DNA of 64,000 nucleotides from an uncultured Lentimicrobiaceae bacterium (GTDB taxonomy: Bacteria > Bacteroidota > Bacteroidia > Bacteroidales > JAGNHN01). The stretch is taken from assembly GCA_964590645.1 (NCBI GenBank), contig CAZPYJ010000018.1, forward strand, positions 9,753-73,752. Reading direction: 5' to 3'. The translations under genes and the position numbers were made by a program. This document shows, piece by piece, positions 1,768 to 64,000 of the stretch. The notes under the pieces are model-generated. The model saw only the letters and a list, made by a program, of their open reading frames with translations. It did no database searches and was not told the origin of the DNA. Each line of letters starts with the position of its first letter. Position 1 is the first letter of the stretch.

Positions 1768-1771
1768 CGGG

Positions 1772-16679: not shown

Positions 16680-16783
16680 TGAAACGGTAAAATTAGGGAA
16701 TTTGAAGCCAGCTTTACAAAGCAAATCTGCCTGGCAATAAAAGCCTGCAAAAGCAGTTTGCCGCATTTATTTTCAAGCCTTCG

Positions 16784-16791
16784 TACCTTTG
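16784..16791 (+). promoter_or_regulatory. -7 box (TAccTTTG) for the porZ-like gene
   Basis: Exact match, only 5 nt before the ATG at 16797. Confidence 0.45.
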
Positions 16792-16796
16792 TCGCT

Positions 16797-38226: not shown

Positions 38227-38321
38227 AAGGCACTGGGATTGGATCGATAAAAATATGCATTTTGCAGCAGCATTCAGAACCTTATCGTCAATCCGCTTCC
38301 CTGCCAATGCCTGAATAAAGT

Positions 38322-47779: not shown

Positions 47780-47868
47780 GACTGAAAGCCCATCGCCTGA
47801 AAATGAAAAGACTACTCAGGTTGACAAGCGTCAAAGGATTGAATATCTTCACCCTTCATTCCTGCCCT

Positions 47869-48876
47869 ATGAAAGAAGCCCAGTATTATTCCTCGGATGG
47901 TATCCGGACCGAATGCCTGCTTTGTCCGCATCATTGCACTCTGGAACCGGACGATGCCGGACGATGCCGTGTGAGGCGGAATGTAGGGGGAAAAATGGTC
48001 ACGGATGCCTATGGACGCATTTCTGCAGCCCACCTCGATCCGATTGAAAAGAAACCCCTGTATCATTTTTTTCCCGGCCGGGAGATCTATTCTGTGGGAA
48101 GCATAGGGTGCAATTTGCGATGCAAATTCTGTCAGAATTGCCAGATATCCCAATCCTCGGCCGATGATCTCCCCCTCCTCGCCCGCCGTAAGCCGGAGGA
48201 GGTGGTCGGAGAAGCCCGGAACCTGCCCGGTAATATAGGCCTGGCCTATACTTACAATGAACCCGGAGTATGGCTGGAATTCTTGCTGGATATGGCACGG
48301 GGGGGCCGCCTTGCCGGAATGAAGAATGTGGTGATCAGCAATGGATTTTTGTCTTCCGGCCCCCTGGGTGATCTGATGAAGCTTACGGATGCCTTCAACA
48401 TCGACCTGAAAGCCTTCTCCGAAGATTTCTACCGCAGGCTTACTTTTTCTTCTCTTGAACCGGTGAAGGACAGCATCCGCCAAATCCATCAGGCAGGCGT
48501 ACACCTGGAGATTACGCATCTTTTGATCCCCGGACTCAACGACAAGGAGAAGGAGTTTGAAGAGATGGTAAGCTGGCTGGAATCTACCCTGGGAGAAAAC
48601 TGCATCCTGCACCTTTCCAAATACTTCCCCAACTACCGGCTGAATCATCCGCCTACCCCTCTTTCCACCCTCTTGAAGTTCTACCATATTGCGAAGAAGG
48701 CTTTTCCCTTTGTATACCTGGGCAACGTGGGATATCAGCAGGAAGGCAGAGATACACACTGCAGCGACTGCGGACAAACTGTGATCCGGCGCTCGGGATA
48801 CCAGACAGATACCTCCGGCCTGAATTCAGAAGGAAAGTGTGTGCATTGCAACCACCAAATTGCCGTCAGCGCATAA
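47869..48876 (+). CDS. amrS: AmmeMemoRadiSam-system radical SAM enzyme
   Basis: ECLLCPHHCTL..GRCRVRRN, then DPIEKKPLYHFFPG and the cluster CNLRCKFCQN. This matches the family pattern as I remember it. Trimmed to the ATG at 47869. Confidence 0.75.
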   Translation: MKEAQYYSSDGIRTECLLCPHHCTLEPDDAGRCRVRRNVGGKMVTDAYGRISAAHLDPIEKKPLYHFFPGREIYSVGSIGCNLRCKFCQNCQISQSSADDLPLLARRKPEEVVGEARNLPGNIGLAYTYNEPGVWLEFLLDMARGGRLAGMKNVVISNGFLSSGPLGDLMKLTDAFNIDLKAFSEDFYRRLTFSSLEPVKDSIRQIHQAGVHLEITHLLIPGLNDKEKEFEEMVSWLESTLGENCILHLSKYFPNYRLNHPPTPLSTLLKFYHIAKKAFPFVYLGNVGYQQEGRDTHCSDCGQTVIRRSGYQTDTSGLNSEGKCVHCNHQIAVSA

Positions 48877-48908
48877 TTGATCTGTAAAACAGTCCGGCTG
48901 CTAGCCGG

Positions 48909-48916
48909 TATTTTTG
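48909..48916 (+). promoter_or_regulatory. -7 box (TAttTTTG) for the ftsX-uppP-truB operon
   Basis: Exact match, 25 nt before the ATG at 48942. Confidence 0.5.
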
Positions 48917-48941
48917 TAATTTCGTCCCCTGCTCACTTTCA

Positions 48942-49820
48942 ATGGCAAAACAAGAGGAAAAATACAACCGGCGAAGACTCAGAAATGCTTACGCCACTAC
49001 GGTGATGAGCCTCTCCCTGGTTTTGTTTATGCTGGGTTTGCTCAGCCTGATCATCCTTCAGGCCCAACGGCTTTCCGATTATGTGAGGGAGAATATCGGT
49101 TTTTCCATCGTTCTGAAGGAAGACGTGAAAGAGGCGAGCATCCTGACCCTGCAAAAAAAGCTGGAATTGGAGGCATTCGTTAAATCTGCCGAATACATTC
49201 CCCGGGAAAGGGCAGCCCAGGAGTTGATTGAAGACCTGGGAGAAGATTTTATTGATTTTTTAGGGTATAATCCCTTGCTGCCCACCCTGGAGGTGAGGCT
49301 CAGGGCACATTATGCCAATGTGGACAGCCTGGCGGTGATTGAGAAGAATCTTCTCACCAATGACGATATCAAAGAAGTTCATTACGAAAAATCCCTGGTA
49401 CACCTGGTCAATGAGAATCTCCGAAAGGTAGGCGTGGTCTTGCTTGGATTCAGTATTGTCTTGCTGCTTATTGCTATAGCTTTAATTAACAACACCATAC
49501 GACTGTCTGTGTATGCCCGCCGTTTCCTGATTCGCAGTATGCAATTGGTGGGGGCTACCCAGGGTTTTATCCGAAAACCCTTTGTCCTGAGTGGCATAGC
49601 CCAGGGAATCTACGGTGCATTCATTGCCCTGCTCCTGCTCAGTCTGGTATTGTATATTACCCGTATGCAGATGCCTGAAATTATTTTGCTGCAGGATATC
49701 CGCCTCTACCTTTCGGTTTTTGCTTTCGTTTTGCTCTCCGGGATACTGCTCTCCTGGATTTCTACTTATTTTGCAGTCAGAAAATACTTGAAAATCAATA
49801 CAGACAGTCTTTATATTTAG
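48942..49820 (+). CDS. ftsX: Cell division protein FtsX-like permease
   Basis: One N-terminal TM, a periplasmic domain, then three C-terminal TMs. It sits in the Bacteroidota context ftsX, DUF3098, uppP, truB. Confidence 0.8.
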   Translation: MAKQEEKYNRRRLRNAYATTVMSLSLVLFMLGLLSLIILQAQRLSDYVRENIGFSIVLKEDVKEASILTLQKKLELEAFVKSAEYIPRERAAQELIEDLGEDFIDFLGYNPLLPTLEVRLRAHYANVDSLAVIEKNLLTNDDIKEVHYEKSLVHLVNENLRKVGVVLLGFSIVLLLIAIALINNTIRLSVYARRFLIRSMQLVGATQGFIRKPFVLSGIAQGIYGAFIALLLLSLVLYITRMQMPEIILLQDIRLYLSVFAFVLLSGILLSWISTYFAVRKYLKINTDSLYI

Positions 49821-49825
49821 GCTTT

Positions 49826-50146
49826 ATGAACAAGAAGAAAAAGATGCGTCACCTGAAGCAGGGTGCAGGTAATCCTCAAACACCGGCCCGGCCTTCCGGG
49901 AAATTGCCTGACTTTGTTTTTGGACGGGAGAACTATATTATTGTCCTTGCCGGCCTCGCCCTGATTGCTTTGGGATTCATTCTGATGATCGGAGGGGGAT
50001 CCAAGGATCCCAATGTTTTCAGTGAGGATATTTTTAACTTTCAACGCCTGACTTTGGCTCCCATTCTGGTTCTGGCCGGATATGCCCTGGAGATTTATGC
50101 AATTATGCACAGGCCCCGAAAAACAAGCCAGGAAAGCGAGGACTGA
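49826..50146 (+). CDS. Small membrane protein (DUF3098-like)
   Basis: 106 aa with two TM helices (FGRENYIIVLAGLALIALGFILMIGGG). Its position after ftsX matches my memory of DUF3098. Confidence 0.55.
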   Translation: MNKKKKMRHLKQGAGNPQTPARPSGKLPDFVFGRENYIIVLAGLALIALGFILMIGGGSKDPNVFSEDIFNFQRLTLAPILVLAGYALEIYAIMHRPRKTSQESED

Positions 50147-50152
50147 TCAGCA

Positions 50153-50935
50153 ATGAGTTGGCTGGAAGCACTGCTCCTGGGCGTACTGCAGGGCCTGACA
50201 GAATTCCTGCCGGTCAGCAGCAGTGGGCATCTGGAACTGGGAAAGGCCCTATTCGGGGTGGATCCGGAAAACAGTCTCTTGTTCACTGTTGTGGTGCACG
50301 GAGCTACTGTATTGAGCACCATTGTCGTTTTTCGCCGTGATCTTGCCCGGCTGATTGCCGGAAGCCTGAAGTTCAGATGGAATGAGGAAACTCGATACGT
50401 CCTGCTGCTTCTCTGGTCGATGTTGCCGGTCTTAATCGTAGGGCTGTTTTTCAAAGCGGAAGTGGAATCCCTTTTCTCCGGACGGATTGTCTTTGTCGGC
50501 ACAATGTTGATCGTGACGGCATTATTGCTGGGGACAGCCCACTTTATTCCTAAAAAAGAAGGGCCTATACGCACTACTGATGCTCTTATCATCGGCCTTG
50601 CCCAGGCACTGGCCGTGATTCCAGGGATTTCGCGCTCAGGGGCAACCATTGCTACCGCTTTATTACTGGGGAAAGATAAGCGTAAAGTAGCCCGTTTTTC
50701 TTTTCTGATGGTACTGCTTCCCATCATCGGGGCCAATATGCTTGACCTGGGGGAAAGCATTGGAACAGGAAGCCTGAACGGAGAAGCGCTTCCCCTTGTG
50801 ATGGGTTTCATCGCTGCTTTTCTTACCGGATGGCTGGCCTGCCGCTGGATGGTGGCCCTGGTAGAAAAGGGGAAATTACTGATATTCGCTTTATACTGCC
50901 TGCTTATTGGAAGCCTGGCCATCATTTTTGCCTGA
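50153..50935 (+). CDS. uppP: Undecaprenyl-diphosphate phosphatase
   Basis: LLGVLQGLTEFLPVSSSGHL and PGISRSGATI motifs. Confidence 0.9.
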   Translation: MSWLEALLLGVLQGLTEFLPVSSSGHLELGKALFGVDPENSLLFTVVVHGATVLSTIVVFRRDLARLIAGSLKFRWNEETRYVLLLLWSMLPVLIVGLFFKAEVESLFSGRIVFVGTMLIVTALLLGTAHFIPKKEGPIRTTDALIIGLAQALAVIPGISRSGATIATALLLGKDKRKVARFSFLMVLLPIIGANMLDLGESIGTGSLNGEALPLVMGFIAAFLTGWLACRWMVALVEKGKLLIFALYCLLIGSLAIIFA

Positions 50936-51651
50936 TGAAAGAAACAGAGACCAGGAATCTGGATTTTCAGGAAGGGGCTGTGCTATTGATAGACAAGGCC
51001 GTGGATTGGACTTCATTTGATGCTGTGGGGTACCTGCGCAGCGGTTTGAACCGAATTTTAAATATCCGCAGGATCAAGATTGGCCACGCCGGCACACTGG
51101 ATCCCAAGGCTTCCGGTTTGCTCATTATCTGCACCGGCAAGTTTACCAAGCGCATCAACGAGTTTCAGGATATGGAAAAGGAGTATACCGGCACCATAAG
51201 ACTGGGGGCTACTACGCCTTCCTTCGATCTTGAAACGGAGGTAGATCGTGAGTACCCCTATGCCCACATTACTCCGGCCCATCTGGAAGAAATCACCCCT
51301 CGTTTTCTTGGGCCTGTTATGCAGGTTCCTCCTGCTTTCAGCGCGATTCATATTGAAGGCAAAAGGGCTTATGAACTCGCCCGCAACGATGTCAAGTCGG
51401 TAAAAATGGCGGCGCGGGAAGTGTTTGTGCATTCTCTTGCATTCACCCGCCTGGCCCTGCCCGAACTGGACTTTACAATCCGTTGTGGCAAAGGAACGTA
51501 CATCCGATCCCTGGCCCGGGATATCGGACAAGCTCTGGGTAGTGGGGGCCATCTGACCGCCCTCAGACGCACCGGAATCGGTCCTTACCGGGTTGAAGAT
51601 GCCGTTCAGGTGCAGGACTTTCTGAAAGACTTGCGGCAGATCAATTCCTGA
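50935..51651 (+). CDS. truB: tRNA pseudouridine(55) synthase
   Basis: The ATG at 50935 overlaps the uppP stop (TGATG). Contains LLIDKAVDWTSFDAV and the catalytic HAGTLDPKASGLL. Confidence 0.9.
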   Translation: MKETETRNLDFQEGAVLLIDKAVDWTSFDAVGYLRSGLNRILNIRRIKIGHAGTLDPKASGLLIICTGKFTKRINEFQDMEKEYTGTIRLGATTPSFDLETEVDREYPYAHITPAHLEEITPRFLGPVMQVPPAFSAIHIEGKRAYELARNDVKSVKMAAREVFVHSLAFTRLALPELDFTIRCGKGTYIRSLARDIGQALGSGGHLTALRRTGIGPYRVEDAVQVQDFLKDLRQINS

Positions 51652-51869
51652 GAAATAAGAGTCTAAGCAACAACATTTCAATCCTTTCACAGTATCTGCC
51701 TCACGCATTCACTTACATATTGATATACAGCCTGATAGTAAAAAAACAGCGCGGATTGTTTCTGAAAACGGATTTGCAGCCATAAATGGATTGGGTTCAT
51801 TGAAAAGCTAATTCTCGTAATCTCAACATTTTATATAGATAAATACTTGACATAGAGTGAGAGAATCAT

Positions 51870-51877
51870 TACCTTTG
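51870..51877 (+). promoter_or_regulatory. -7 box (TAccTTTG) for queA, with TTG about 20 nt upstream
   Basis: Exact match, 50 nt before the ATG at 51928. A cTTGa at 51846..51850 is spaced like a -33 element. Confidence 0.5.
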
Positions 51878-51927
51878 CACATCTTTTTGAGAGGGATTAC
51901 TGTATCGGGTTTTAGAAGACGAGGAAG

Positions 51928-52977
51928 ATGAAGCTATCACAATTCAGGTTTGATTTACCTGCCGGATTGATTGCGGATCAGCCAACGCAAAACAGGGAAG
52001 ATTCCCGTTTGATGGTGGTAAATCGCGCCAACGGAGAAATATCACATCATATGTTTGCCGACATTGTCCGCTTTTTTGATGACGGCGACGTGATGGTGTT
52101 GAACAACACTAAGGTATTTCCGGCAAGATTGTTCGGGGAGAAGGAAAAGACAGGAGCCAAAATTGAGGTCTTTTTGTTAAGAGAGCTCAACAGGGAAACC
52201 CGTTTATGGGACGTACTGGTAGATCCTGCAAGGAAAATCCGGATTGGCAACAAGCTGTATTTCGGTGAAGATGAAACCCTGGTGGCAGAGGTGATCGACA
52301 ATACCACTTCCCGTGGGCGTACCTTGCGTTTTCTCTTTGATGGACCTTATGAAGAGTTCAAAAAGACCATTCAGCGCCTGGGGCATACCCCGCTCCCTAA
52401 ACTGCACAATCGTCCTGTAACCGAGGACGACAAAGAGCGCTATCAGACCATTTATGCCAAGCACGAAGGTGCGGTTGCCGCGCCCACTGCAGGCCTGCAT
52501 TTCAGCCGTGAACTGATGAAACGGCTTGAGCTGCAGGGGGTCGGTTTTCCGGAGGTCACCCTGCACGCCGGCCTCGGCAATTTCCGTACCATCGATGTGG
52601 AAGACCTGACCAAGCATAAAATGGATTCTGAAGAGGTGATTATCCCTGAACTCAGCTCCCTGATGGTAAACCAGGCCAAGGATGCAGGCAAACGCATCTG
52701 TGCGGTAGGAACTACCACAATGAAGGCCATCGAGACTTCGGTGTCCATCTCCGGCCACCTGAAGCCCTACAAGGGATGGACCAATAAATTCATTTTCCCT
52801 CCCTACGAATTCAGCATCGCCAATGCGATGATATCCAATTTTCACCTCCCCCTCTCGCCTATGCTGATGATGACGGCTGCTTTTGCCGGCTACGACTTGC
52901 TGATGAAGGCTTATGACGAGGCCATCAAGGAGGAATACAAGTTCTTTACCTATGGGTCGGCAATGCTGATCCTGTAA
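51928..52977 (+). CDS. queA: tRNA preQ1(34) S-adenosylmethionine ribosyltransferase-isomerase
   Basis: [29 protein letters not shown] and GTTTMKAIE are all typical of QueA. Confidence 0.95.
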
Positions 52978-52995
52978 GCCCGTGCATCAATCCTG

Positions 52996-53685
52996 ATGTC
53001 AGATTACGCCATTATCGTGGCCGGTGGCCTGGGAAGGAGAATGGGGATGGAAGCCCCCAAGCAATTTCTGAACCTGGCTGGAAAACCGGTATTGCAATAT
53101 GCCCTGGATGCATTTAAAACAGCATTACCAGGCATCCGTTTCGTGCTGGTGATCCCTCAGGCTTATGAAAAAGAAGCTACAGACATCCTTGGTGCCTGCG
53201 GAGTGACGGAGCGTACCCACCTGGCCTTAGCCGGCAGAGAACGCTACTTTTCGGTGCAAAACGGATTAAGTTTTATCCCGGCCGGTGAGGGCCGCATTGC
53301 CGTACACGATGCTGCACGCCCTTTGGCCTCCCCCTCACTCATACAGCGGTGTTTTGATGCCCTCAAACTGGCAGAGGCAGTGGTCCCGCTGATTCCGGTT
53401 CACGATTCAGTCAGGATGATCAGGGAAGGAGGAGGCAGCCAGGTCCTTGACAGAAATACACTTCGTGCCGTACAAACCCCACAGTGCTTCCGAAACGATA
53501 CGCTCAGAAAAGCCTACACCCTCCCTTTCGACCCGCTCTTCACCGATGATGCATCCCTGGCAGAAAAAGCAGGGGTCCGGATTCATTGGATAGAAGGAGA
53601 AACAGCCAACCTGAAGCTGACCACTCCTGAGGATATGATCATTGCAGAAGCCTTACTTGCAGCAAGAGGCATCAACGCACCCTGA
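52996..53685 (+). CDS. ispD: 2-C-methyl-D-erythritol 4-phosphate cytidylyltransferase
   Basis: AIIVAGGLGRRMG, VHDAARP and VQTPQCF motifs. Confidence 0.85.
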   Translation: MSDYAIIVAGGLGRRMGMEAPKQFLNLAGKPVLQYALDAFKTALPGIRFVLVIPQAYEKEATDILGACGVTERTHLALAGRERYFSVQNGLSFIPAGEGRIAVHDAARPLASPSLIQRCFDALKLAEAVVPLIPVHDSVRMIREGGGSQVLDRNTLRAVQTPQCFRNDTLRKAYTLPFDPLFTDDASLAEKAGVRIHWIEGETANLKLTTPEDMIIAEALLAARGINAP

Positions 53686-54799
53686 TCTTTCTTCCCTTCC
53701 AGGAAGCTCCCCCCCCTAAGGTCCCCATCCACAAGAATATCAGGAAAACCGGATATAGGAATACCATCCGGGGGAAAGCGCGTAAGGCCTTGCGCTGCCC
53801 TGACCAGCCTGTCCAGGCAACAGCTAGCATCCACTCAGGGATGGCTTTGAGTAAAAGGCAGATTATGGGAACAGCTACACCTGTTTTGCCAAAGCCCAGC
53901 AAGCCTATCGATAGCAGAAAAGCCAGATTCGCCAATACCACAGCCAGCCCGGTCAGCCTGGCTTTCAGGTTGGTTTTGGCGCTTTTGCCGGCCCAGCGCA
54001 GTCGCTGTTTGTACACATCGCCCCATCGCATCAAGCCCGGAGTTTCACACAAGGCTTCCCGGCTTTTGACAAAACGGATGCTCTCCCTACCAAACTGCTT
54101 CCATATTTTTTCCACCAGAAATACATCGTCCCCGGAGGCGAGCTCCTGATGCCAGGGGTCTTTTCCAAGGGCTTCCAGCGAGGGCTTCCGGAGGATCAGG
54201 TTGGCTCCGGTGCTGAGCAGGGGGAAGCCCAGTGCGAGGCTGGATGCTCCGGACAGCATCAGGATCCCATACTCGAGTTGCTGCAAGAAAATGATCTGCC
54301 TTTCCTTTCCGATGATCCGGATGCCGCCCCAGCATAAATGGGTCTGGGTGCTTTCTGTCAGGGCCTCCCGCATCGTCCGGATCCAGCTCGGGGGATGGAA
54401 TACATCGGCATCGGTGAAAAGCAGAAAATCTCCGGAGGAAATGGCCACCCCTTTTTGAAGTGCAGCCTTCTTTCCCCTCTCATCCTTGTTCAGCTGAGTA
54501 ATGTTAACTGCAATCGAAACCTCATTTTCAGTCTCTTTCCTGATGATTTCCAATCCTCCGTCTTCACTATGATCATCTACAAAGATCAGTTCCACCGGGC
54601 CGGTGTTATCCTGTGCCTGCAATCGTTTCCATACCTGGGGTAAGTGTTTCGCTTCATTGCGGAATGGAACGATGACACTGATCAGGGATATATCCCCTTT
54701 TGTTTGCTTCTTTTCAGAAGGCAGTTTCTTCCAGGCACGCAGGAAGGCCCACAGCAGGAGGGCGTACAAAAGAAGCATTACAACAATCAAATAGTGCAT
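53672..54799 (-). CDS. Glycosyltransferase family 2 (membrane-associated)
   Basis: SVIVPFRNEAKHL, ELIFVDDHSEDG, FTDADV. The C-terminal part contains TM helices. Confidence 0.75.
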   Translation of the reverse strand: MHYLIVVMLLLYALLLWAFLRAWKKLPSEKKQTKGDISLISVIVPFRNEAKHLPQVWKRLQAQDNTGPVELIFVDDHSEDGGLEIIRKETENEVSIAVNITQLNKDERGKKAALQKGVAISSGDFLLFTDADVFHPPSWIRTMREALTESTQTHLCWGGIRIIGKERQIIFLQQLEYGILMLSGASSLALGFPLLSTGANLILRKPSLEALGKDPWHQELASGDDVFLVEKIWKQFGRESIRFVKSREALCETPGLMRWGDVYKQRLRWAGKSAKTNLKARLTGLAVVLANLAFLLSIGLLGFGKTGVAVPIICLLLKAIPEWMLAVAWTGWSGQRKALRAFPRMVFLYPVFLIFLWMGTLGGGASWKGRKIRVR

Positions 54800-54837
54800 C
54801 GCATATATTCAGGTTAAGGCATCGCCTGGCTTTTCTT

Positions 54838-54845
54838 TACCTTTG
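54838..54845 (+). promoter_or_regulatory. -7 box (TAccTTTG) for ruvC
   Basis: Exact match, 17 nt before the ATG at 54863. Confidence 0.5.
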
Positions 54846-54862
54846 TGCTGATACTACACATT

Positions 54863-55414
54863 ATGCCCTCCGAACGCATCATCCTTGGCATTGATCCCGG
54901 CACCAATATAATGGGCTATGGCATTATTGCCTGCCAGGGAAGGCGTTACCGGGTGCTGGCCCTGGGTGTGCTTAAGCTGGGCCGGATTGAAGCACAGGGT
55001 GGGAAATTAAAGAAAATATTTGATCGCACGCTGGGCTTGATCGATGAATATCATCCTGACGAACTGGCCATCGAAGCACAGTTTTTCGGAAAGAATGTGC
55101 AGTCGATGCTCAAACTGGGCCGGGCTCAGGGTGTTGCCATTGCCGCGGCACTGCATCGATCGGTTGAATACTATGAGTATTCACCCCGGAAGATCAAGCA
55201 GAGCATTACGGGCAAAGGCAGTGCTTCGAAGGAACAGGTTGCCGCAATGTTGGGGCATTTGTTAAAGATGCCGCTGGAGGGCGAGTCACTGGATGCCACA
55301 GATGGATTAGCGGCTGCGGTATGCCACGCAATGCAGGGTTTTGAGCATAGCGAGCAGAAGCACGGGAACTGGGAAAGCTATCTGAAGGCCCATCCGGGCA
55401 GAATCAAAGGCTGA
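54863..55414 (+). CDS. ruvC: Crossover junction endodeoxyribonuclease RuvC
   Basis: IILGIDPGTNIMGYGII, ELAIEAQFFGKN and DATDGLAAAVCH. The ATG at 54863 is 17 nt after a -7 box. Confidence 0.9.
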   Translation: MPSERIILGIDPGTNIMGYGIIACQGRRYRVLALGVLKLGRIEAQGGKLKKIFDRTLGLIDEYHPDELAIEAQFFGKNVQSMLKLGRAQGVAIAAALHRSVEYYEYSPRKIKQSITGKGSASKEQVAAMLGHLLKMPLEGESLDATDGLAAAVCHAMQGFEHSEQKHGNWESYLKAHPGRIKG

Positions 55415-55805
55415 GGTAAGCCTCGCGGATTTCGGAAGCAATCTTTTCAAACTCTTCCGCGCTGAAGCTCAGTTTTGGCTTGCTGAAGTCAATATCATAG
55501 ATCCCATTGATCGGGACAAGGTGAATATGTGCGTGGGGGACTTCCAGTCCGATCACAGCCATTCCTATTCTTTTGGCCTCGCTCATCTTATCCAGGGCCA
55601 AAGCCAGCTTACGGGTGAACTCGAGCAGTTCATCATAGATCTGGGGTTCAAGATGATAAAGCACATCCACCTCCTTTTTGGGAATGGCAAGCAGATGACC
55701 TTTGGCAAGGGGATGAATGTCGAGAAAGGCAAGGCAGTTTTCTGTCTCGGCCACTTTCCAGGCCGGTATTTCTCCCTGGACGATTCGTGTGAAAATGCTG
55801 GCCAT
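55404..55805 (-). CDS. HIT-family (histidine triad) protein
   Basis: CIF-type start MASIFTRIVQGEIPA and the triad HAHIHLVP. Confidence 0.85.
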   Translation of the reverse strand: MASIFTRIVQGEIPAWKVAETENCLAFLDIHPLAKGHLLAIPKKEVDVLYHLEPQIYDELLEFTRKLALALDKMSEAKRIGMAVIGLEVPHAHIHLVPINGIYDIDFSKPKLSFSAEEFEKIASEIREAYLSL

Positions 55806-55817
55806 ATCTGTCTTTTT

Positions 55818-56294
55818 TCAGCTGCGGGTAATATCTACTATTTCAAATTGTACTGTTCCGGCGGGCACCTGAATATCCACCGCATCGCCCACCTTCTTCC
55901 CTAATAGTCCCTGGGCGATGGGGCTATTGATTGAAATCTTTCCGGATTTCAGGTCTGCCTCATTCTCAGGTACCAGGGTATAAGCCATTTCTTTTTTTGT
56001 TTTCATATTTCTGATTTTGACCGTACACAGGATCAAAACCTTGGAGGCATCCAGATTGCTTGCGTCGAGGACGCGGGCATTGCGGATGGCTTCTCCGAGC
56101 TTGGCGATTTTCAGTTCAAGCATTCCCTGTGCTTCTTTGGCTGCATCGTACTCGGCATTTTCCGAGAGGTCTCCTTTTTCCCGGGCTTCGGCAATCTGGC
56201 GTGAGATTTCCGGTCTTCTGACACTGGTAAGATATTCCAGTTCATCTTTCATTTTCTGAAGCCCTTCTTCGGTAACATATCTGCTCTCGCTCAT
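55818..56294 (-). CDS. greA: Transcription elongation factor GreA
   Basis: Trimmed to the ATG at 56294. Contains YVTEEGLQKMKDELEYL, GDLSENAEYDAAKE and ISINSPIAQGLLGKKVGD. Confidence 0.9.
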   Translation of the reverse strand: MSESRYVTEEGLQKMKDELEYLTSVRRPEISRQIAEAREKGDLSENAEYDAAKEAQGMLELKIAKLGEAIRNARVLDASNLDASKVLILCTVKIRNMKTKKEMAYTLVPENEADLKSGKISINSPIAQGLLGKKVGDAVDIQVPAGTVQFEIVDITRS

Positions 56295-56399
56295 AACTTT
56301 GGCTTTATCAGGTCTTGGTATTAAAAAAGCTTGAAGACCCTTATCCAACATAAGGGCCCTCAAGAAAATATTTGTTATTCAGACTATATGGTTCGCAAC

Positions 56400-57458
56400 T
56401 TAGAAGCTGATATGCGCTCCTATGGTATGCGTTCCATCAAAGGGATTGGTTGCTCTGTATGCATAATCCACGCCAAACACTGAACCTGTTTCTTTGTTCA
56501 TCGGAATCTGTATCGTCAGTCCGGCACTGGGTCCGGTATAGACGGAGGTCCGCTCTGCATCATCGAAAAGGCCGTCTTCGTATGTATAACCGGCCCTCAG
56601 CATCAGCACTTCTTTATAGGAATACTCTGCGCCCAGCATAAACTGGTCTTTGGTAAATGAGTTTGACTGGAAGTTTCCGGCAAGGGTCAGGCGGGAGATC
56701 TCATTGAAGTTAAAGTCATAAGCCACTCCGATGGCCAGGGCTGAGGGCAGCTCAAAATCTTCCGATCGTTGCTCCACGGTAAACTGGTTGGCTTGTCCGG
56801 GAATAAACCCACGGAAAGAGAGTCCGTCGCCGTTGAACTGCATCGTAGGCCCGATATTCTTCAGTGTAATCCCGAAAAGGATATTGTCGGTAGGCCCGGT
56901 CACATAATGAATACCGGCATCGATTCCGATTCCCTGAGCACTGATATCGGCGATGGATTCGGAAATGATTTTCACGTTGATACCGCCATAAATGCTGTTG
57001 CTAAAGGCTTTGGCATAGGCCATATTAATATTAAGCAAATTGGGTGTGAATGTACCGATTCCGCCTTCGGGCTGATTTACGGTGGTGATATCAATTTCCC
57101 CAAACTGCATAGACATCACAGCCATAGAGAATGCACCTGCATCGCCCACTTTCTGGCTGAAGCCAAAGGCGTTGATATTTACGTCGGAGCCACTGAGCCA
57201 GTTGGTGTAGGCAAAGTTGAGCTCGGTGGCTTTGGTAAATGCCGTTCCTGCCACATTGGTCCATATCCCTTCCAGGCCACGCACATTGGCCACATTGGCA
57301 TTGGCCCATCCATTTCCACGGACCCAGGGATTGATCAGCAATTCAGAGGCACCAGCCTGTCCTGAGCGGTCCTTATTTCCAGCCTGCAACTGTACCAGAG
57401 GTAAGATCATCAGGCTTGCCAGGGTGAATACGATCAGATATGTTTTAATCTTCTTCAT
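56400..57458 (-). CDS. PorV/PorQ-family outer-membrane beta-barrel protein
   Basis: Signal peptide. The N-terminal segment GQAGASELLINPWVRGNGWANANVANVRGLEGIWTNVAG fits the PorV/PorQ family pattern (aG..eLl..p.aRg.g.g.A....G.e....N.AG). The barrel ends ..TIGAHISF. At ~352 aa it is closer in size to PorQ than to PorV. Confidence 0.55.
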   Translation of the reverse strand: MKKIKTYLIVFTLASLMILPLVQLQAGNKDRSGQAGASELLINPWVRGNGWANANVANVRGLEGIWTNVAGTAFTKATELNFAYTNWLSGSDVNINAFGFSQKVGDAGAFSMAVMSMQFGEIDITTVNQPEGGIGTFTPNLLNINMAYAKAFSNSIYGGINVKIISESIADISAQGIGIDAGIHYVTGPTDNILFGITLKNIGPTMQFNGDGLSFRGFIPGQANQFTVEQRSEDFELPSALAIGVAYDFNFNEISRLTLAGNFQSNSFTKDQFMLGAEYSYKEVLMLRAGYTYEDGLFDDAERTSVYTGPSAGLTIQIPMNKETGSVFGVDYAYRATNPFDGTHTIGAHISF

Positions 57459-57488
57459 TGTTCCTTCTTTTTTTAGATCCACCATTGC

Positions 57489-60400
57489 TTAGAACGAGTT
57501 GAGGTCAACAGGTCTGAGGGTACCAAACCATTTCACTACTTTTTCCCCTACTCCGGGTACATCCACGTGGATAAGATAAATCCCGCCCGCAATGGGTATT
57601 CCGGCCTGGTTCTTCAGATCCCAGTCGAGGAAGGTACTTGCATCGTCTTTGGAAAACTGACGAATGCGTGTTCCGCTGATGTTGTAGATGGTGATGGTAC
57701 AACGCTCGGGCAGGTTTGTAAACTTGACCCGATTATCGAGCTGGTTGGTTTCGTAGTGAGAATAGCCGTAATAAGGATTGGGTACCACATTGATGATGTC
57801 CAGGGCCTCGATGGCGGCGGTGGTATTATTTTTCGAGGTGGCAATATCATCGGTGGTGAAGGTGTACATCGGCCAGTTGTCGTTCTGGGCCGGATCTGCT
57901 CCGTAGGTGGACCAGTTCCTGGCGTAAGGCCTTGCCACCCGGATTTTCACGTGGGCTTCGGTGGAAAGGAATTCCACATCAAAATTATGTACAGGGATAT
58001 TCACCCACATTACGTTGGCATAAACATAACGCCTCTCGAAATCCTGTCCGCCGAGTAATCCCCGTGCCCAGGCTCCGGCATCATAAGCAGGTGCATCGTA
58101 CTCTGGATATCCCGGCTCGATTCCCGATCCGTGTCCCAGGACGTAGGTATAATGCATTCCACCGAAGGGCATATCATAGATGCTGGCAATCACAGGCGAG
58201 GGATTCCAAAGCATATCCCGTCCGTTATACTGCCCGTACCAGGAGTTCTCTCCATAGAATACATTGAGCCTTTCTCCTGTTTCCAGATTGATGGCGTAGC
58301 CCGGGAACCATCCCATTCCTTTGTCGGAAATATAGTTGGGATCTTCCGGATTATCACTGGGGCCGCTGCCTGGCACGGCAGGATTCCCGTCTTTATCAAT
58401 GGATGGCGATTCGCGCAAGGCAAAACGGCGCGCACCTCCCTGAGCCAGGTTGCGGTCGGGCGACATTTCCACCACCGGACAGCGTGTCCATTTCGAGCGA
58501 TCAGGGGTATAGACGATGTCAACGCTATGCAAATTTTGCAGCTTGGCCAGGGTTCTTGAGGGGCCATCCAGGGCCGGACCATAAGGATCATCGCTGTTCT
58601 GGGCACAAAGGGAGTAGGGCCCCCAGGTGCCATTTACCACCTTTTCGTAGTCCTCGTTGGGGTCGAAGGGCGAGCCGGTTTTCCAGTCGTTGTTCGCAGC
58701 ATTGTCCGGATCCTCCAGTACTCCGGCACGGATCCAGTTGAAAGGACCCGGATCGTCGCGGTCGGCGATGCCACCCAACCAGGGTTTGGTGCTGTCGGCA
58801 AAGCTGAGTGATGAGTTAATATACCCATTGTTTCTACCCAGGGTATCTCCCGGGAAGCGAATCTGGTTGATTCCGACAGACAGCCCCAATTCAGGGAACA
58901 GCTGTTCATTCACCCTGCTGATATCGCTTTCACTTTCCCAGGTCTGACCATTGTCGTTGTTGGTCAGAATCCAGGTGGCGGTATTGATGCTTCCTTCCAC
59001 ATTAAAGCGGAGAGTATAGTTGCCGGGTTTTACATTCAGCGGATCGATCACTTTGATGTTGACAGGCCCGAAACCATTTTCGTAAGTAGGATTCTCGATA
59101 ATATAAGGGGGCGCTGTTTTAGCCATCAGCTCATCGATGGATTCCTGGGTAAGGTTCAACTCCAATCCGCCATTTCCTTTTCCTTCGATGCGGGTAATCT
59201 TTGGTCCGTCACCATAGGATGAGTTTAAAACTGTTCCACCGGCTTCCGGTGAGGGAAGATGGGGAATCGCAGTGATCGACTGGATACGGCCTACTGCACT
59301 TTTACGTCCGGCAAGGTAAGGCTTCTTCTGACCGTCAAAATACTGCGGATCATCCTGGATATAGGTCTTATAATTATTGTAGGCGTAAGCAATGGCGATA
59401 TAGTAATACTGCTTATGGTTCACCAGGCGGCGGTCACCTGAAGCAAACTGATCTTCCAGGATGCGGAAGGAGTGGCGAATGCCTTTATCTTCCCCATTGA
59501 CTTCCAATACCGGCACACTGGATTCAAGGGCTTCATTATAGTAGTAGTTGGTCAATCGTGCCACACCATTCTCTATGTCGCACTGGGCAACCAGACGGGA
59601 TACATTGACATCCCCAATCTCTGACACGTCCACATCGCTGTTGGCTACCTGGAAAATCTGATATCCCTCAAAGCGGTAGTAACGATCATACACAATGGTA
59701 TCTGTAACAATCTCCTGGGTATATTGCCCGGTAAGGGTATCATAGATGTAATTGGTTTGTGTTTCGATCGCCGATTCCGGGATATTGGGTTCCAGCTCCT
59801 GGTATGCTTCCAGATAGTTGTTGGAAGTCTTGCGGTTGGAAATATACAGTATGATTTCCCTGTCGAGCTCCTGGGCTACGAGGTCCGGAGCGTCGGGTCC
59901 GTCCACCACTTTAAAGCAGTTGTCAAAAAGAGACTGTGCTTTATCATCAACCAGACGCAGGAGTTCAACAGAGGCAAAGGGGCCTCCGCTGGCGGCGCGT
60001 GCCCAGGGAATACCAACGGTGATATAGTTTACGGCGCCTGGCTCAAGGGTAAAGGGTCCGGCAGACTGCATAAAGCGGCGGTCGTAGGGTTCGTTGCCGG
60101 CCGTTTCTTCTGTCCACACCACACCGCTACCTCCGGCACCGGTAATATAGCCTGCAGGCTGGATGCCTCCGGTACCCCAGTTACAAGGATCCGTATCGGC
60201 CGGGAACATAAAGTCACAGTCGGGACCGGTAGCTCCTGAATTGGGGTGGGCATTCCCACCATAGCGCATTTTGATCCCGTCCTTCCAGATGCCACGGAGC
60301 AGGTTGTAGTACTCAGGAGCATCGCTTGGATCGGTCATAGCCCAATACCCTCCAAGGTTGTTATGATATACAAAGCGGCGCATCCCGAAACGTTCATTGT

Positions 60401-61637
60401 CTACAATGGAGTCACCAAAATTCACCCCATTGATGCTGACATCGCAGAGCGGCTTGCCATCCGGACCGATCCGGGGATTATCAAGGCCGTCCGGATCCAT
60501 ATAGGGACCCTGGAAAAAGTCGACGCCAATAGCCGGAGGCTGCGCACCATAATGGTCATCCTTCCCTGTCCCGTCTATGGCATTGCCATTGTAGCAGTAA
60601 CCCAGTCCGCGCTGAACATCGCATCCCACATAATCATCATAAGCATAGCCTACATCGGTATCCACCCACTGGCTGAAATAGGTTTCAGTAAGGCGGAAGG
60701 TAGAGCGGTTAATGATTTCATAGGAATAGAAAGTCATATTGTTGATCTCATCATTGGTGGCGAAGGCAAAGGCCTGGGCGCGGATCTCCATTCCAATGGG
60801 AGCTCCCTGTGTTTCGCTGTGGATGTTTCCTTTGTCATTGAAAACCCACCACAGGGTCTGGTCGCCTTTGATCACCTGGTCGGCAAGAATACCTCCTTTT
60901 ACAATGCCCAGCATATCTTCCATCGTGGGGGCAGGTGGTTTGAAAAGGTTCTCTTCGTTGCGCGGGCAAAGAGAGTTGTCGAGGTCATAGTAGGGATAGT
61001 CTCCCTGGTAAGGATCATAGTTTCCGTCTCCGTCCTCATCCCAGAAGGGAGCCAGGTAGTAGCTCTGATTTCTCGAAATATCACCGTGGGCAGGCCAATC
61101 AAGGATGGACTTTGGGATAGTATAATCCGGATAACTTTCTTTATCGTTAAACCAGGCGATAAACTGGTCGATCTCGGCCCGGGTAATCACAAAGTGCTTG
61201 TCATACTGCGTGCAGACGTCCGGATCGATGGAAGCCTTTCCATCAATAGTCAGCGGGCCGGGCCAGTAATCGTTTCCATTCCCACGATATCGTTGGGCAG
61301 CCAGCTTCAGCTGTCCGTTCACATCCAGTCCTCCAATCCAGAGTGAGGCCGAAAACATCGAGGTTTTGAGGCTGTTCTTGGGAATGAAGTAGCGGGCCAC
61401 ATCCAGAAGATCCCACCACATATCGCCCCCGGTATTGATACGCGCACGGACGTTGTTGATATTCAAGTCGGTGAAAGCGGACGCAGCAGCACAGCCTGCT
61501 GCTTTGGTAGACCGGTTTGCCTGATTCTTGGCTGTTCCGGGGTTCTTGTAGGCATAAGCCCCTGTAGCCATAGAAATGGCCAGGAAACTTAGCAAGAATA
61601 TCCGAAGCATATTTTTCATAGCTGATATATTTTTCAT
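57489..61637 (-). CDS. Giant secreted protein of unknown function with T9SS-like C-terminal domain
   Basis: 1382 aa with signal peptide (..SMATGAYA). I recognise no catalytic motif. The last ~90 aa read VVPNPYYGYSHYE..CTITIYNISGTRIRQF..WDLKNQAGIPIAGGIYLIHVDVPGVGEKVVKWFG, which is a Por-secretion-tail-like pattern. Confidence 0.6.
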   Translation of the reverse strand: MKNISAMKNMLRIFLLSFLAISMATGAYAYKNPGTAKNQANRSTKAAGCAAASAFTDLNINNVRARINTGGDMWWDLLDVARYFIPKNSLKTSMFSASLWIGGLDVNGQLKLAAQRYRGNGNDYWPGPLTIDGKASIDPDVCTQYDKHFVITRAEIDQFIAWFNDKESYPDYTIPKSILDWPAHGDISRNQSYYLAPFWDEDGDGNYDPYQGDYPYYDLDNSLCPRNEENLFKPPAPTMEDMLGIVKGGILADQVIKGDQTLWWVFNDKGNIHSETQGAPIGMEIRAQAFAFATNDEINNMTFYSYEIINRSTFRLTETYFSQWVDTDVGYAYDDYVGCDVQRGLGYCYNGNAIDGTGKDDHYGAQPPAIGVDFFQGPYMDPDGLDNPRIGPDGKPLCDVSINGVNFGDSIVDNERFGMRRFVYHNNLGGYWAMTDPSDAPEYYNLLRGIWKDGIKMRYGGNAHPNSGATGPDCDFMFPADTDPCNWGTGGIQPAGYITGAGGSGVVWTEETAGNEPYDRRFMQSAGPFTLEPGAVNYITVGIPWARAASGGPFASVELLRLVDDKAQSLFDNCFKVVDGPDAPDLVAQELDREIILYISNRKTSNNYLEAYQELEPNIPESAIETQTNYIYDTLTGQYTQEIVTDTIVYDRYYRFEGYQIFQVANSDVDVSEIGDVNVSRLVAQCDIENGVARLTNYYYNEALESSVPVLEVNGEDKGIRHSFRILEDQFASGDRRLVNHKQYYYIAIAYAYNNYKTYIQDDPQYFDGQKKPYLAGRKSAVGRIQSITAIPHLPSPEAGGTVLNSSYGDGPKITRIEGKGNGGLELNLTQESIDELMAKTAPPYIIENPTYENGFGPVNIKVIDPLNVKPGNYTLRFNVEGSINTATWILTNNDNGQTWESESDISRVNEQLFPELGLSVGINQIRFPGDTLGRNNGYINSSLSFADSTKPWLGGIADRDDPGPFNWIRAGVLEDPDNAANNDWKTGSPFDPNEDYEKVVNGTWGPYSLCAQNSDDPYGPALDGPSRTLAKLQNLHSVDIVYTPDRSKWTRCPVVEMSPDRNLAQGGARRFALRESPSIDKDGNPAVPGSGPSDNPEDPNYISDKGMGWFPGYAINLETGERLNVFYGENSWYGQYNGRDMLWNPSPVIASIYDMPFGGMHYTYVLGHGSGIEPGYPEYDAPAYDAGAWARGLLGGQDFERRYVYANVMWVNIPVHNFDVEFLSTEAHVKIRVARPYARNWSTYGADPAQNDNWPMYTFTTDDIATSKNNTTAAIEALDIINVVPNPYYGYSHYETNQLDNRVKFTNLPERCTITIYNISGTRIRQFSKDDASTFLDWDLKNQAGIPIAGGIYLIHVDVPGVGEKVVKWFGTLRPVDLNSF

Positions 61638-61652
61638 TGCAGATTAATCTCT

Positions 61653-64000
61653 TTAGAAGTTCAGGCTGACGCCCAGGCGAATCTGGCGGGGAGCGCTGTA
61701 ATTTGAAGGGTTATTCACTTTCAGTGCATACAGGTCGCGGAAAGCCTGCTCATAGGTTTGTGCCTGTATCCCTGCCTGGAATTCAGCAGCGGCGAGGTAT
61801 CCGTCGTCATCGGGATTACCGGTTGCCCTGTAAACGCTTAGGATATTCTTGGTATTCAGGATGTTCAACACATCCAGGAAGATGTTCATAAAGATCTTCT
61901 TTCCATCTTCTCCGCTGCCGGCCGTCAGCACCACATCTTTGTCGAAGCGGGCATCCATCCTGAACTGCCAGGGAAGGCGGGAGCCATTGATAGAACCTTG
62001 CAGCAGTGAGCCGCCTCCACCCAGCTGGGTAGCGACAACGCGGCTTGACCGGCTGTAAGGTGTTCCACTCCCTCCGTTAAAGGTGAGGGTGAAACCGGAA
62101 TTCTTAAGCCACTGTACGGTTTGCACCTTATCCGTTCCCTTGATCTTTCGCGTGGACACCGGACCATTGTAGTCCTTGCCCTCTGCAAAGCGATAGTCGA
62201 GCAAGACATTGATTCCGTGGCGACGGTCATAATCCAGGGGAGACAAGGTACGCAGGTTGGGCTGGTTTGAGGAAACAAGGGCCCTGGCTGATTCGGCATC
62301 CGATCCGGTTCCTTCAGCAAACTGCAAGGTGTAGCTGGCCCGGATACGGGTGTTGTTGGTCCTGCGCAAGTCATAGGTAATTGTAAGTCCTTTGACCGTA
62401 CCGAAGTCGATATTATTATAAGAGTAATAGGACTGGGGATAAGCTCCGCTGAAGCGGAAGGCCTGGATCTGATCGCGCATTTCACGATAGAAGGTGGAGA
62501 GGTTCAGAGACGAGGAATTGGATATCTTCTGCATAAAACCAAGCTCGTAGTCGATGGTACGCGAGGGCTTCAGGTTGGGATTATTGATGTATCCCGACCG
62601 GGCCTCCATAAACAGATAATCGGTGGGATCCATCCGGGAGAAGCCGGTGGGCCGCTGAGTGAGTACATCGTAATGGGCAAAGAACAAAGCCTCATCCGAG
62701 ATGGGGAAAGAGAAAGAGATACGCGGCATCAGGCTTGTCTGGGGGTCGTAATCTTTGAATGCTGAGGCATCGAGGGAGGCAGAAGGATCTACCAGATAGG
62801 GAGAAACACCTTGTCCTGCATCCAGTATGCTTGGATCCGTCACTTCTTTACCTTCACTGTTAAACCATACGCTTCCGGAGCGATATCCTGTAATATTGGT
62901 GGGATTGTTTACATCATTGACGTAAACCACATAATCCTGGCCCATATTCTCCGGATGGGAACCCAGGTTATCCACCTCACCTACCGTCTTGGCTTCGTAT
63001 AAAAGGTAAGGATCCTTCAGTACCATCTGGTTGGCATCATAGCGGTCGAGGCGCAGGCCAACGTTAAATATCAGGTCTCTGAAAGCAAATTTATCCTGAA
63101 TATAGCCGGCCAGATAGATGGGTTCAAAAGCCCCGATGGTGCGCATCCGGTTACCGAAATCATCGGTAGCATTGAAGAAATCTTCGAAGGCCGGACGATT
63201 GCTCAATTTCTTTCCGGTATAATCATATCCTGAATAAGAGATCAATGAATTGACCCCTCCGCGGTAAAGTTCATCCGGACTGAACATATCGATGGAAAAG
63301 ACCTCAGGGTCATAGTTGTCCACGTCTATCCAGTCGAGGCCATCGGTTGGTAAGCCCAGGCGTTCACGTACGCTGTAGTCAAAATAGAACTGGGCATTCC
63401 CGTCAAACAGGCGTTCATAATATACGGTGTCCTGAAACACCCCGAATTCGTCATAAATGGCGATGGGATTGTCCTTATCAAGCTGGGCGATATGGGCATT
63501 GGTCAGAGAACGCGCCAGTGTCCACAAACCTACCGGAGCATAGCCGTAGAAGGAGTTGGAGCGTTGTTCATACTGTATCCCGAACTGAATTTCGTGGTTC
63601 CCGATGTCTGCTGATCCGTGTGCCGCGATCCCGATCTGGGAGTTGTCGGTGATGGAATAACCATTGTATTGCTGTCCCACATTCTGCCATAATCCGTAAA
63701 CACTTTCCGGTTGATCGCCGTTCAGCAGTCCTCCGCCAAGCTGTACCTGGGTGAAGTTCTGGTAATGAAAGAAAGGATTGTCATAGAGGTCGTAATACAT
63801 TGATGTATAGCGAGCCACTTCAGGATTGATGGAGGAGGGATCGAAGCTGAAAAGTGTATCGGCAAAACCATTGTGGATGTTCACATCATTGAATCCCAGA
63901 ATGGAGTCTGATCCGATTTCATAGGAGCGGATCTTATGTGTTTTGAACTTCCCTACATACCCGTAGTTAAAGAGATTGTCTTTGTGATCCCTGTCCTGGG
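61653..64000 (-). CDS. TonB-dependent-receptor-type outer-membrane barrel (5' end beyond the window)
   Basis: By my translation the frame stays open from 63884 to the window edge. It is a long beta-barrel sequence with a terminal ..RQIRLGVSLNF. The plug and N-terminus are not visible. Confidence 0.7.
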   Translation of the reverse strand, partial: QDRDHKDNLFNYGYVGKFKTHKIRSYEIGSDSILGFNDVNIHNGFADTLFSFDPSSINPEVARYTSMYYDLYDNPFFHYQNFTQVQLGGGLLNGDQPESVYGLWQNVGQQYNGYSITDNSQIGIAAHGSADIGNHEIQFGIQYEQRSNSFYGYAPVGLWTLARSLTNAHIAQLDKDNPIAIYDEFGVFQDTVYYERLFDGNAQFYFDYSVRERLGLPTDGLDWIDVDNYDPEVFSIDMFSPDELYRGGVNSLISYSGYDYTGKKLSNRPAFEDFFNATDDFGNRMRTIGAFEPIYLAGYIQDKFAFRDLIFNVGLRLDRYDANQMVLKDPYLLYEAKTVGEVDNLGSHPENMGQDYVVYVNDVNNPTNITGYRSGSVWFNSEGKEVTDPSILDAGQGVSPYLVDPSASLDASAFKDYDPQTSLMPRISFSFPISDEALFFAHYDVLTQRPTGFSRMDPTDYLFMEARSGYINNPNLKPSRTIDYELGFMQKISNSSSLNLSTFYREMRDQIQAFRFSGAYPQSYYSYNNIDFGTVKGLTITYDLRRTNNTRIRASYTLQFAEGTGSDAESARALVSSNQPNLRTLSPLDYDRRHGINVLLDYRFAEGKDYNGPVSTRKIKGTDKVQTVQWLKNSGFTLTFNGGSGTPYSRSSRVVATQLGGGGSLLQGSINGSRLPWQFRMDARFDKDVVLTAGSGEDGKKIFMNIFLDVLNILNTKNILSVYRATGNPDDDGYLAAAEFQAGIQAQTYEQAFRDLYALKVNNPSNYSAPRQIRLGVSLNF

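Follow-up and report, generated by a model that had tools for sequence, protein, structure and literature searches.

What would bring a TonB-dependent transporter, a secreted protein of 1382 residues and a small outer-membrane barrel together in a single run of genes? The question is raised by one end of a 64,000-nucleotide (nt) stretch of DNA from an uncultured Lentimicrobiaceae bacterium (contig CAZPYJ010000018.1, positions 9,753 to 73,752 of the forward strand), referred to throughout as the window, where the genes for these three proteins, here called the transporter, the giant and the barrel, follow one another on the minus strand. In our judgement it is an even bet that the three genes encode one outer-membrane unit for capture and import, in which the giant is held by a barrel of its own. 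The types of component are known, whereas the combination, the barrel subfamily, the extended C-terminal domain (CTD) of the giant and the passenger family that precedes it are not, and a search of the literature on PorV/PorQ-type barrels, on PorF, and on type IX secretion (the T9SS) with TonB-dependent transporters found no description of the three-gene unit. The parts of the unit, as placed in the window, are:

61653..64000, minus strand: transporter gene, C-terminal 782 codons; the frame continues without a break to the window end, and the N-terminal part lies beyond it
61638..61652, minus strand: transporter-giant spacer, 15 nt, from the transporter stop to the first ATG of the giant
57489..61637, minus strand: giant gene, 1382 residues
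61551..61637, minus strand: Sec signal peptide of the giant, residues 1-29, by inspection; alternative starts at M7 or M10
57522..57800, minus strand: T9SS type-A-like CTD of the giant, residues ~1280-1372, placed by Foldseek, TIGR04183 and hhalign
57492..57521, minus strand: conserved C-terminal extension of the giant, TLRPVDLNSF, beyond the CTD
56400..57485, minus strand: barrel gene, 361 residues from the first ATG, or 352 residues from M10 at 57458
56320..56364, minus strand: terminator-like hairpin with a 15-base-pair stem and T-run, 3' of the barrel and before greA

These coordinates agree exactly with an earlier interpretation made from the letters of the window (the sequence-only reading), which had described three minus-strand genes with gaps of 15 nt and of 30 nt, or 3 nt with the longer barrel frame. 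The second gap depends on the start of the barrel gene, measuring 3 nt (57486..57488) from the first ATG and 30 nt (57459..57488) from M10, the likely start. Across 78 loci the median spacers are 36 nt between transporter and giant and 35 nt between giant and barrel. A terminator-like site was sought in both spacers within the unit and found in neither, as against the strong one 3' of the barrel, and a comparable hairpin with a T-run was counted in 53 of 84 related loci (a raw count with no control for chance). We take the transporter, giant and barrel genes to be one transcription unit, and the greA and HIT-family genes to be fixed neighbours rather than members. The inclusion of greA in the operon was rejected because the terminator-like hairpin stands between it and the barrel gene; greA and the HIT gene probably form a separate transcript. 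The GTG start listed for the transporter frame at 63884 is an artefact of truncation by the window end.

The arrangement is not a chance one: every related locus looked at has it. Relatives of the giant are encoded in at least 596 genome stretches, and gene order was scored in the 80 best loci, which come from Bacteroidales and Lentimicrobiaceae-type metagenome-assembled genomes (MAGs) with giant identities of 47-59%. The order transporter-giant-barrel is found on one strand in all 80, and greA lies 3' of the barrel in about 76, while the outer flanks vary (ruvC in 8 of 80, AdoHcyase in 32 of 80). In the Flavobacteriales branch, where the identity of the giant falls to 39-40%, greA and the HIT gene again come after the unit in Halocola ammonii, Salibacter halophilus, a 3.5-Mb Flavobacteriales MAG and a Crocinitomicaceae MAG, as it is in a MAG labelled KSB1. 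The neighbourhood survey that the sequence-only reading had put forward as a check on itself thus found the three genes together in every scored locus and in a second order. A reciprocal test, for which barrels in a separate collection of metagenome contigs were the starting point, placed the C-terminus of a giant directly upstream of the barrel in 70 of 71 evaluable loci; in the single exception the upstream match to the giant stops short of the C-terminus, probably due to a split alignment. In the same collection the transporter precedes the giant in 41 of 41 loci and greA follows the barrel in 62 of 62. Conservation of the trio spans Bacteroidales and Flavobacteriales. Two loci that carry the unit (L027 and L088) are labelled Omnitrophica and KSB1; their proteins share 54-59% identity with Bacteroidales ones and their synteny does not differ, which suggests that the contigs were mis-binned and not that those phyla have the unit.

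The transporter is cut by the window end, and Pfam finds no match in the fragment. The gene is complete in a public contig (L089) that is 100% identical to window positions 47489..64000 over 16512 nt and extends 6.5 kb further. This contig supplies the N-terminus for which the sequence-only reading had looked to a longer contig, and gives a gene for 1216 residues. The completed protein has a CarboxypepD_reg domain (60 bits, above the Pfam cut-off) and a Plug domain, PF07715 (36.6 bits against a cut-off of 23.9), which supports the TonB-dependent type that had been read from its C-terminal part. An alignment of transporter N-termini places a TonB-box-like EVVDY motif before canonical plug motifs, and the C-terminal end of the protein reads ...LGVSLNF. 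The TonB-dependent receptor barrel model PF00593 has no match in the L089 transporter; a 60%-identical orthologue in L008 matches it (TonB_dep_Rec_b-barrel, 44.1 bits against a cut-off of 27), and the transporters of L085 and L088 carry the same annotation in precomputed form. At about 1216-1296 residues the transporter is unusually large, and a PDB search in which the N-terminal CarboxypepD_reg domain was the sole match places it, by sequence, far from every solved transporter. The transporter does not match the SusC/RagA model TIGR04056 at E<=0.1, and a SusCD-type pair was rejected on this ground and because the adjoining gene encodes the giant, which is not SusD-like. Rfam, run on six loci, gave no riboswitch 5' of the transporter that might hint at a substrate.

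At the other end of the unit, the window barrel scores 145.8 bits with the PorV/PorQ family model NF033709 (cut-off 90), as its earlier designation as a PorV/PorQ-type barrel had anticipated, and 11 orthologues from both orders score 134-156 bits; the PorV structure 6h3i_F in the PDB matches the window barrel at E 2.9e-6. Scores with the narrower models are low. The PorV equivalog NF033710 gives 73.5 bits for the window barrel and 58-80 for the orthologues (cut-off 250), the PorQ equivalog NF033711 gives 68.5 and 55-74 (cut-off 220), and PorV2, NF052325, gives 43.3 and 40-56 (cut-off 325), while the window barrel reaches 20.6 bits with the PorP/SprF model TIGR03519 (cut-off 90.55) and has a marginal match to Pfam PF11751 (25.9 bits against 22.3). 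Because all 12 fall below the PorV and PorQ cut-offs, the barrel is, judged by these scores, a distinct subfamily and not core PorV or PorQ in 12 of 12 cases. The sequence-only reading had allowed that its small barrel might turn out to be the single core PorV or PorQ of the genome, with no conserved linkage to the giant; scores of 55-80 bits against cut-offs of 220-250 and a near-absolute linkage point the other way, and that identification was rejected on family scores. Two barrels of the β-barrel assembly machinery (BAM) complex of Bacteroidota, BamG and BamP, were also looked at and are unrelated.

What could hold the giant to such a barrel? The C-terminus of the giant is, in its modelled structure, a T9SS CTD, with that of PorZ the closest. 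Its tail carries motifs of the type A CTD kind (VVPNPYY, TITIYNISGTRI, GGIYLIHV and KVVKWFG), and a Foldseek search with the C-terminal sandwich returned the PorZ CTD 5m11 as the best match (E 2.7e-5), followed by the CTD of NucA in the T9SS translocon (8glk_D, template modelling score 0.57 on the target). Furthermore, hhalign aligned the CTD with that of the PorZ encoded elsewhere in the window (E 1.3e-3, 114 columns), and found no match between it and the CTD of an ordinary cargo protein from the same window. Por_Secre_tail, PF18962, is weakly matched by 9 of the 16 relatives searched, at best with E 1.9e-4. Of the T9SS sorting tail that had been proposed, the motifs and the fold stand; the TIGR04183 score is below its cut-off.

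The CTD is also the best-conserved region of the giant, with a mean identity to the window residue of 0.59 as against 0.35-0.48 in the passenger (alignment of 108 representatives with pairwise identity of at most 50%, which also underlies the residue counts below). The CTDs of Porphyromonas gingivalis cargo proteins share just 7-30% mutual identity (PMC11285876). Past the usual last CTD strand runs the extension, with the consensus KWFGxxRPxDLxxF, which both Bacteroidales and Flavobacteriales keep; 461 of the 481 relatives of full length have it, and 435 of the 481 end in F. The extension is disordered in the AlphaFold2 model (predicted local distance difference test, pLDDT, <50), which would suit a stretch that takes up its fold on a partner. 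The strong conservation of the CTD argues for its retention after export, and together with its likeness to the CTD of PorZ would fit a retained, partner-bound domain. One small clade of giants (P0234, P0389 and P0390) ends after the usual CTD, without the RPxDLxxF tail (L086 130..4338; L092 9001..13215), and in the two of these that were examined (P0234 and P0390) no barrel follows.

The remainder of the giant resembles nothing that has been named. Its N-terminus, MKNISAMKNMLRIFLLSFLAISMATGAYA followed by YK, is by inspection a Sec-type signal, in line with the signal peptide claimed earlier, and the start is called at M10 in the database entry for the protein (P0001). Neither a Pfam search for families nor a PDB search with the single sequence and with a profile gave a match to the giant; Pfam and NCBIfam matched nothing outside the CTD in the giant and its relatives, and Pfam run over 16 relatives at E<=1 found CTD-type domains and nothing else. 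Relatives nevertheless number >7000 in a large database, and a search without the CTD collected 7457 clusters at 50% identity (E<=1e-3), 2287 of them at E<=1e-30, for which the sources hold no name beyond 'T9SS sorting domain-containing protein'. The AlphaFold2 model of residues 641-1382 is of good quality (pLDDT 79.8, predicted template modelling score 0.69), and in a Foldseek search against the PDB residues ~800-1280 found no fold match, the C-terminal sandwich alone being matched.

No protease-type site is seen in the giant. Among the 108 representatives 118 positions are conserved in at least 95%, and Asp, Asn, Gly, Pro and aromatic residues abound at these positions; H1162 is the sole invariant His, C49 and C142 are the only invariant Cys, and neither an invariant nucleophile pair nor an invariant Cys or Ser nucleophile is seen. 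Invariant acidic residues include D326, D328, D335, D340, E1057 and E1130. The GHGSG sequence of the giant lies at H1169, and the next Cys, C1313, is 144 residues on. Pfam and NCBIfam give no match to PorU or peptidase C25 at E up to 0.1-1, and the PorZ model NF052228 reaches 18 bits against a cut-off of 260, in the CTD region only. The sequence-only reading had seen no catalytic motif and no C25 His/Cys dyad, and had named assignment to PorU or another characterised family with intact catalytic residues as the result that would count against it; the searches returned no such family and no such residues. A divergent PorU or PorZ was accordingly rejected for the giant, on the family scores and on the presence of a separate PorZ in the window.

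The picture of the unit needs amending by its upstream companions: a small membrane protein and a LytTR regulator, the latter alone or with a sensor kinase. In L089, which represents the source organism, a LytTR response regulator and a 186-residue single-pass membrane protein are encoded just upstream of the transporter (3627..5080), and there is no kinase. A family search with the 186-residue protein gave no family; it is fast-evolving, and weak relatives of it stand at the same position, ~120-150 nt upstream of the transporter, in at least 42 of 91 loci. Immediately upstream of the unit, in the same orientation, about 39 of 88 loci, Salibacter among them (L084 2198..5783), encode a sensor kinase of ~1000 residues (Reg_prop/Y_Y_Y and His_kinase) together with a LytTR regulator. 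The same kinase-regulator pair adjoins giants that have no transporter or barrel in L087 and L092, and so the two-component system seems to be tied to the giant.

The window holds further genes that bear on secretion, and the two conserved neighbours of the unit:

55818..56294, minus strand: greA, with the start as in the L089 gene call
55404..55805, minus strand: HIT-family gene
16758..19145, plus strand: canonical PorZ, NF052228 equivalog at 663.6 bits against a cut-off of 260, with Pfam PorZ_N_b_propeller
35521..38307, minus strand: ordinary T9SS cargo of 928 residues with BNR/Asp-box repeats and a type A CTD, TIGR04183 29.2 bits against 23

The canonical PorZ indicates that the organism has a T9SS and, lying elsewhere in the window, that the giant is not the PorZ orthologue. 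Its own neighbours are thymidine kinase and recO, with no PorQ-type barrel adjoining. Also encoded on the minus strand are a DUF6029 protein (604 bits; 28159..29859), an AsmA-like protein (31604..34177), an ordinary 808-residue TonB-dependent receptor (3126..5552) and a 595-residue open reading frame without a family match (112..1899). A wider synteny common to Bacteroidales and Flavobacteriales takes in greA, the HIT gene, an opposite-strand ruvC and a family-2 glycosyltransferase (window 53672..55805; L084, L085 and L088), and in L084, L085 and L088 ruvC and the glycosyltransferase are separated by the gene for a lysylphosphatidylglycerol-synthase-type membrane protein. An S-adenosylmethionine (SAM) riboswitch on the related contig L043 (107..214, minus strand) is far from the unit and unrelated to it.

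How might the three proteins work together? By analogy with the PorZ-PorQ and PorU-PorV pairs and with the shuttles of type B substrates, the most economical interpretation would make the downstream barrel the private shuttle and anchor of the giant, with the CTD and its tail as the interface. The giant would be exported by Sec and then by the T9SS of the organism, its CTD would be left uncleaved, and the CTD with the extra tail would form a handle for the barrel, which would take the giant from the translocon and hold it on the cell surface. This part of the proposal is modelled on PorQ holding PorZ and on SprF-type barrels holding type B substrates. The tethered giant would then act as the extracellular capture or processing partner of the co-transcribed transporter, the transporter would import the product in a TonB-powered step, and the LytTR regulator, with a propeller/Y_Y_Y sensor kinase in many genomes, probably controls expression. 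Strict co-transcription with a plug-bearing transporter and a signal-sensing regulator suggests a regulated capture and import machine. The sequence-only reading had offered a dedicated anchor and a surface complex: the dedicated linkage is conserved, the barrel is not a core one and the CTD is PorZ-like, whereas the complex itself is drawn from inference and the list of its parts has had to be amended. In its fullest form, as a widespread and so far undescribed TonB-dependent uptake machine in which a T9SS giant of new fold sits on a PorQ-like barrel by an uncleaved, extended CTD under a two-component system of its own, the proposal is a tentative one to which we give somewhat less than an even chance.

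Several observations weigh against the proposal. Anchoring, association with the transporter and uptake are drawn from gene linkage, conservation and analogy. The TIGR04183 score of the giant is 20.4 bits, below the cut-off of 23 (17.7 bits for the L008 giant), the AlphaFold2 model of residues 1-700 (from a 50-sequence alignment) has a pLDDT of 47.6, and Foldseek with this low-confidence model came back empty; the passenger shows no recognisable binding or catalytic domain in Pfam, NCBIfam or the Foldseek search of the C-terminal half. Nutrient-uptake loci are usually variable and multi-copy, whereas this unit evolves only slightly faster than greA and has housekeeping genes around it, features that fit a core envelope role at least as well. 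Furthermore, there are tail-bearing paralogues of the giant without an adjoining barrel or transporter, so that the pairing is not obligatory at the gene level. A second giant follows greA or the HIT gene (L019 10001..14179; L085 10001..14485), stands at a distant site (L083 10001..14176) or forms part of a tandem pair (L092 4537..13215); most of these extra copies retain the C-terminal tail, with a few relatives lacking it, and a comparison made in one genome showed the distant copy and the copy in the operon (P0276 and P0281) to have nearly identical CTDs.

The main rival, which we consider unlikely, takes the unit for a housekeeping module of surface biogenesis allied to the T9SS, with the giant and the barrel as a pair like those of the attachment complex and the transporter in an accessory role like that of PorF, serving for example a surface glycan or lipid for the modification or anchoring of cargo. 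There is a precedent, as P. gingivalis requires the TonB-receptor-like barrel PorF (PG0534) for normal T9SS output (PMC5445135, PMC12704123), and such a role would suit the likeness of the giant's CTD to that of PorZ, the PorQ-like size of the barrel (in several orthologues the match to the PorQ model spans the full length), the very high conservation, and the fixed position by greA, HIT and ruvC in two orders. However, the source genome already has a canonical PorZ, the passenger of the giant has no similarity to those of PorU or PorZ, the transporter is ~400 residues longer than PorF, and an adjoining signal-responsive two-component system is more typical of inducible loci for uptake or degradation. 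More doubtful is the suggestion that the giant is an adhesin, coat or motility-related protein at the surface, carried on its own barrel, and that the transporter is co-regulated and functionally separate. Large T9SS proteins with cognate downstream barrels, of which SprB-SprF is an example, are adhesins (PMC12618676), in a protein with no catalytic motif the numerous invariant residues (Asp, Asn, Gly and aromatic ones) could have a structural or calcium-binding role, and some of the extra giants have no transporter; yet adhesins are usually fast-evolving and repetitive, while the giant is 50-60% identical across an order and has no repeats that Pfam detects, and the transporter precedes it in every locus scored from either side, at spacers of ~36 nt. 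Least probable of all, in our estimate, is an ordinary arrangement in which the giant is type A cargo with a CTD that PorU cleaves, the barrel is a general PorV-like shuttle, and the order is inherited synteny. The genes greA, HIT and sometimes ruvC and the glycosyltransferase are syntenic across orders too, so that some of the order is historical, and the CTD does bear the usual type A motifs; but the trio is always kept while the outer flanks vary, the barrel is far below the PorV cut-off, and one would not expect a disposable signal to be the best-conserved part of its protein and to bear an extension specific to the family.

Should the capture and import reading prove right, the giant and its barrel would be a third cognate pair of a type A-like CTD and a PorV-family barrel, beside PorU-PorV and PorZ-PorQ, and a natural system in which to ask how a CTD escapes cleavage and picks its barrel. 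It would also be, to our knowledge, the first case in which the surface partner of a TonB-dependent transporter comes by way of the T9SS and not as a lipoprotein, and would link type IX secretion mechanistically to TonB-powered import. A very large family is put on the map in any event, with ~1250 residues free of Pfam domains and no fold match in the half that could be modelled, and cultured carriers such as Salibacter halophilus and Halocola ammonii offer a concrete context in which it can be tested.

The closest parallels among known systems are the pairs of the attachment complex, in which PorU is held by PorV, and PorZ by PorQ, through CTDs that are not cleaved. The retained CTD of PorZ binds PorQ, and cognate PorV-like barrels have been proposed to shield the CTD from cleavage (PMC10202324). 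As in these pairs, a large surface protein, whose CTD is type A-like, goes with a barrel of the PorV/PorQ family; the CTD of the giant is structurally closest to that of PorZ, and the large gene followed by the barrel gene repeats the order of porU-porV. The differences are that the passenger is unrelated to the propellers of PorZ or the C25 peptidase of PorU, that the barrel falls below both equivalog cut-offs, that the CTD has an extra conserved tail of ~10 residues, and that a TonB-dependent transporter is always co-encoded, in a genome where canonical PorZ coexists with the unit. Type B substrates depend on a PorP/SprF shuttle of their own, whose gene follows theirs, and specific, stoichiometric pairing is expected of SprB-SprF and Fjoh_3952-Fjoh_3951 (PMC12618676). 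The giant gene likewise immediately precedes its own barrel gene; unlike the type B pairs, however, its CTD is type A-like, its barrel belongs to the PorV/PorQ family, and a transporter is part of the unit.

PorF provides a parallel for the transporter, being a TonB-type barrel functionally tied to T9SS output, and is set apart by size (~92 kDa versus ~135 kDa for the transporter); it is not known to share its locus with genes for a CTD protein and a barrel of the PorV type. SusC-SusD, RagA-RagB and BtuB-BtuG resemble the unit in that a transporter with CarboxypepD_reg and plug domains is co-encoded with a large extracellular protein, often together with a sensor or regulator. In contrast to the partners in those systems, the giant is neither a lipoprotein nor SusD-like, and would reach the surface by the T9SS and be held there by a third protein; the transporter, for its part, differs from SusC and RagA in its lack of a TIGR04056 match and in its length, and the locus is single-copy and slowly evolving. 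Set beside these systems, the unit suggests a machine for capture and import that would be analogous in function to SusCD-type pairs and built differently.

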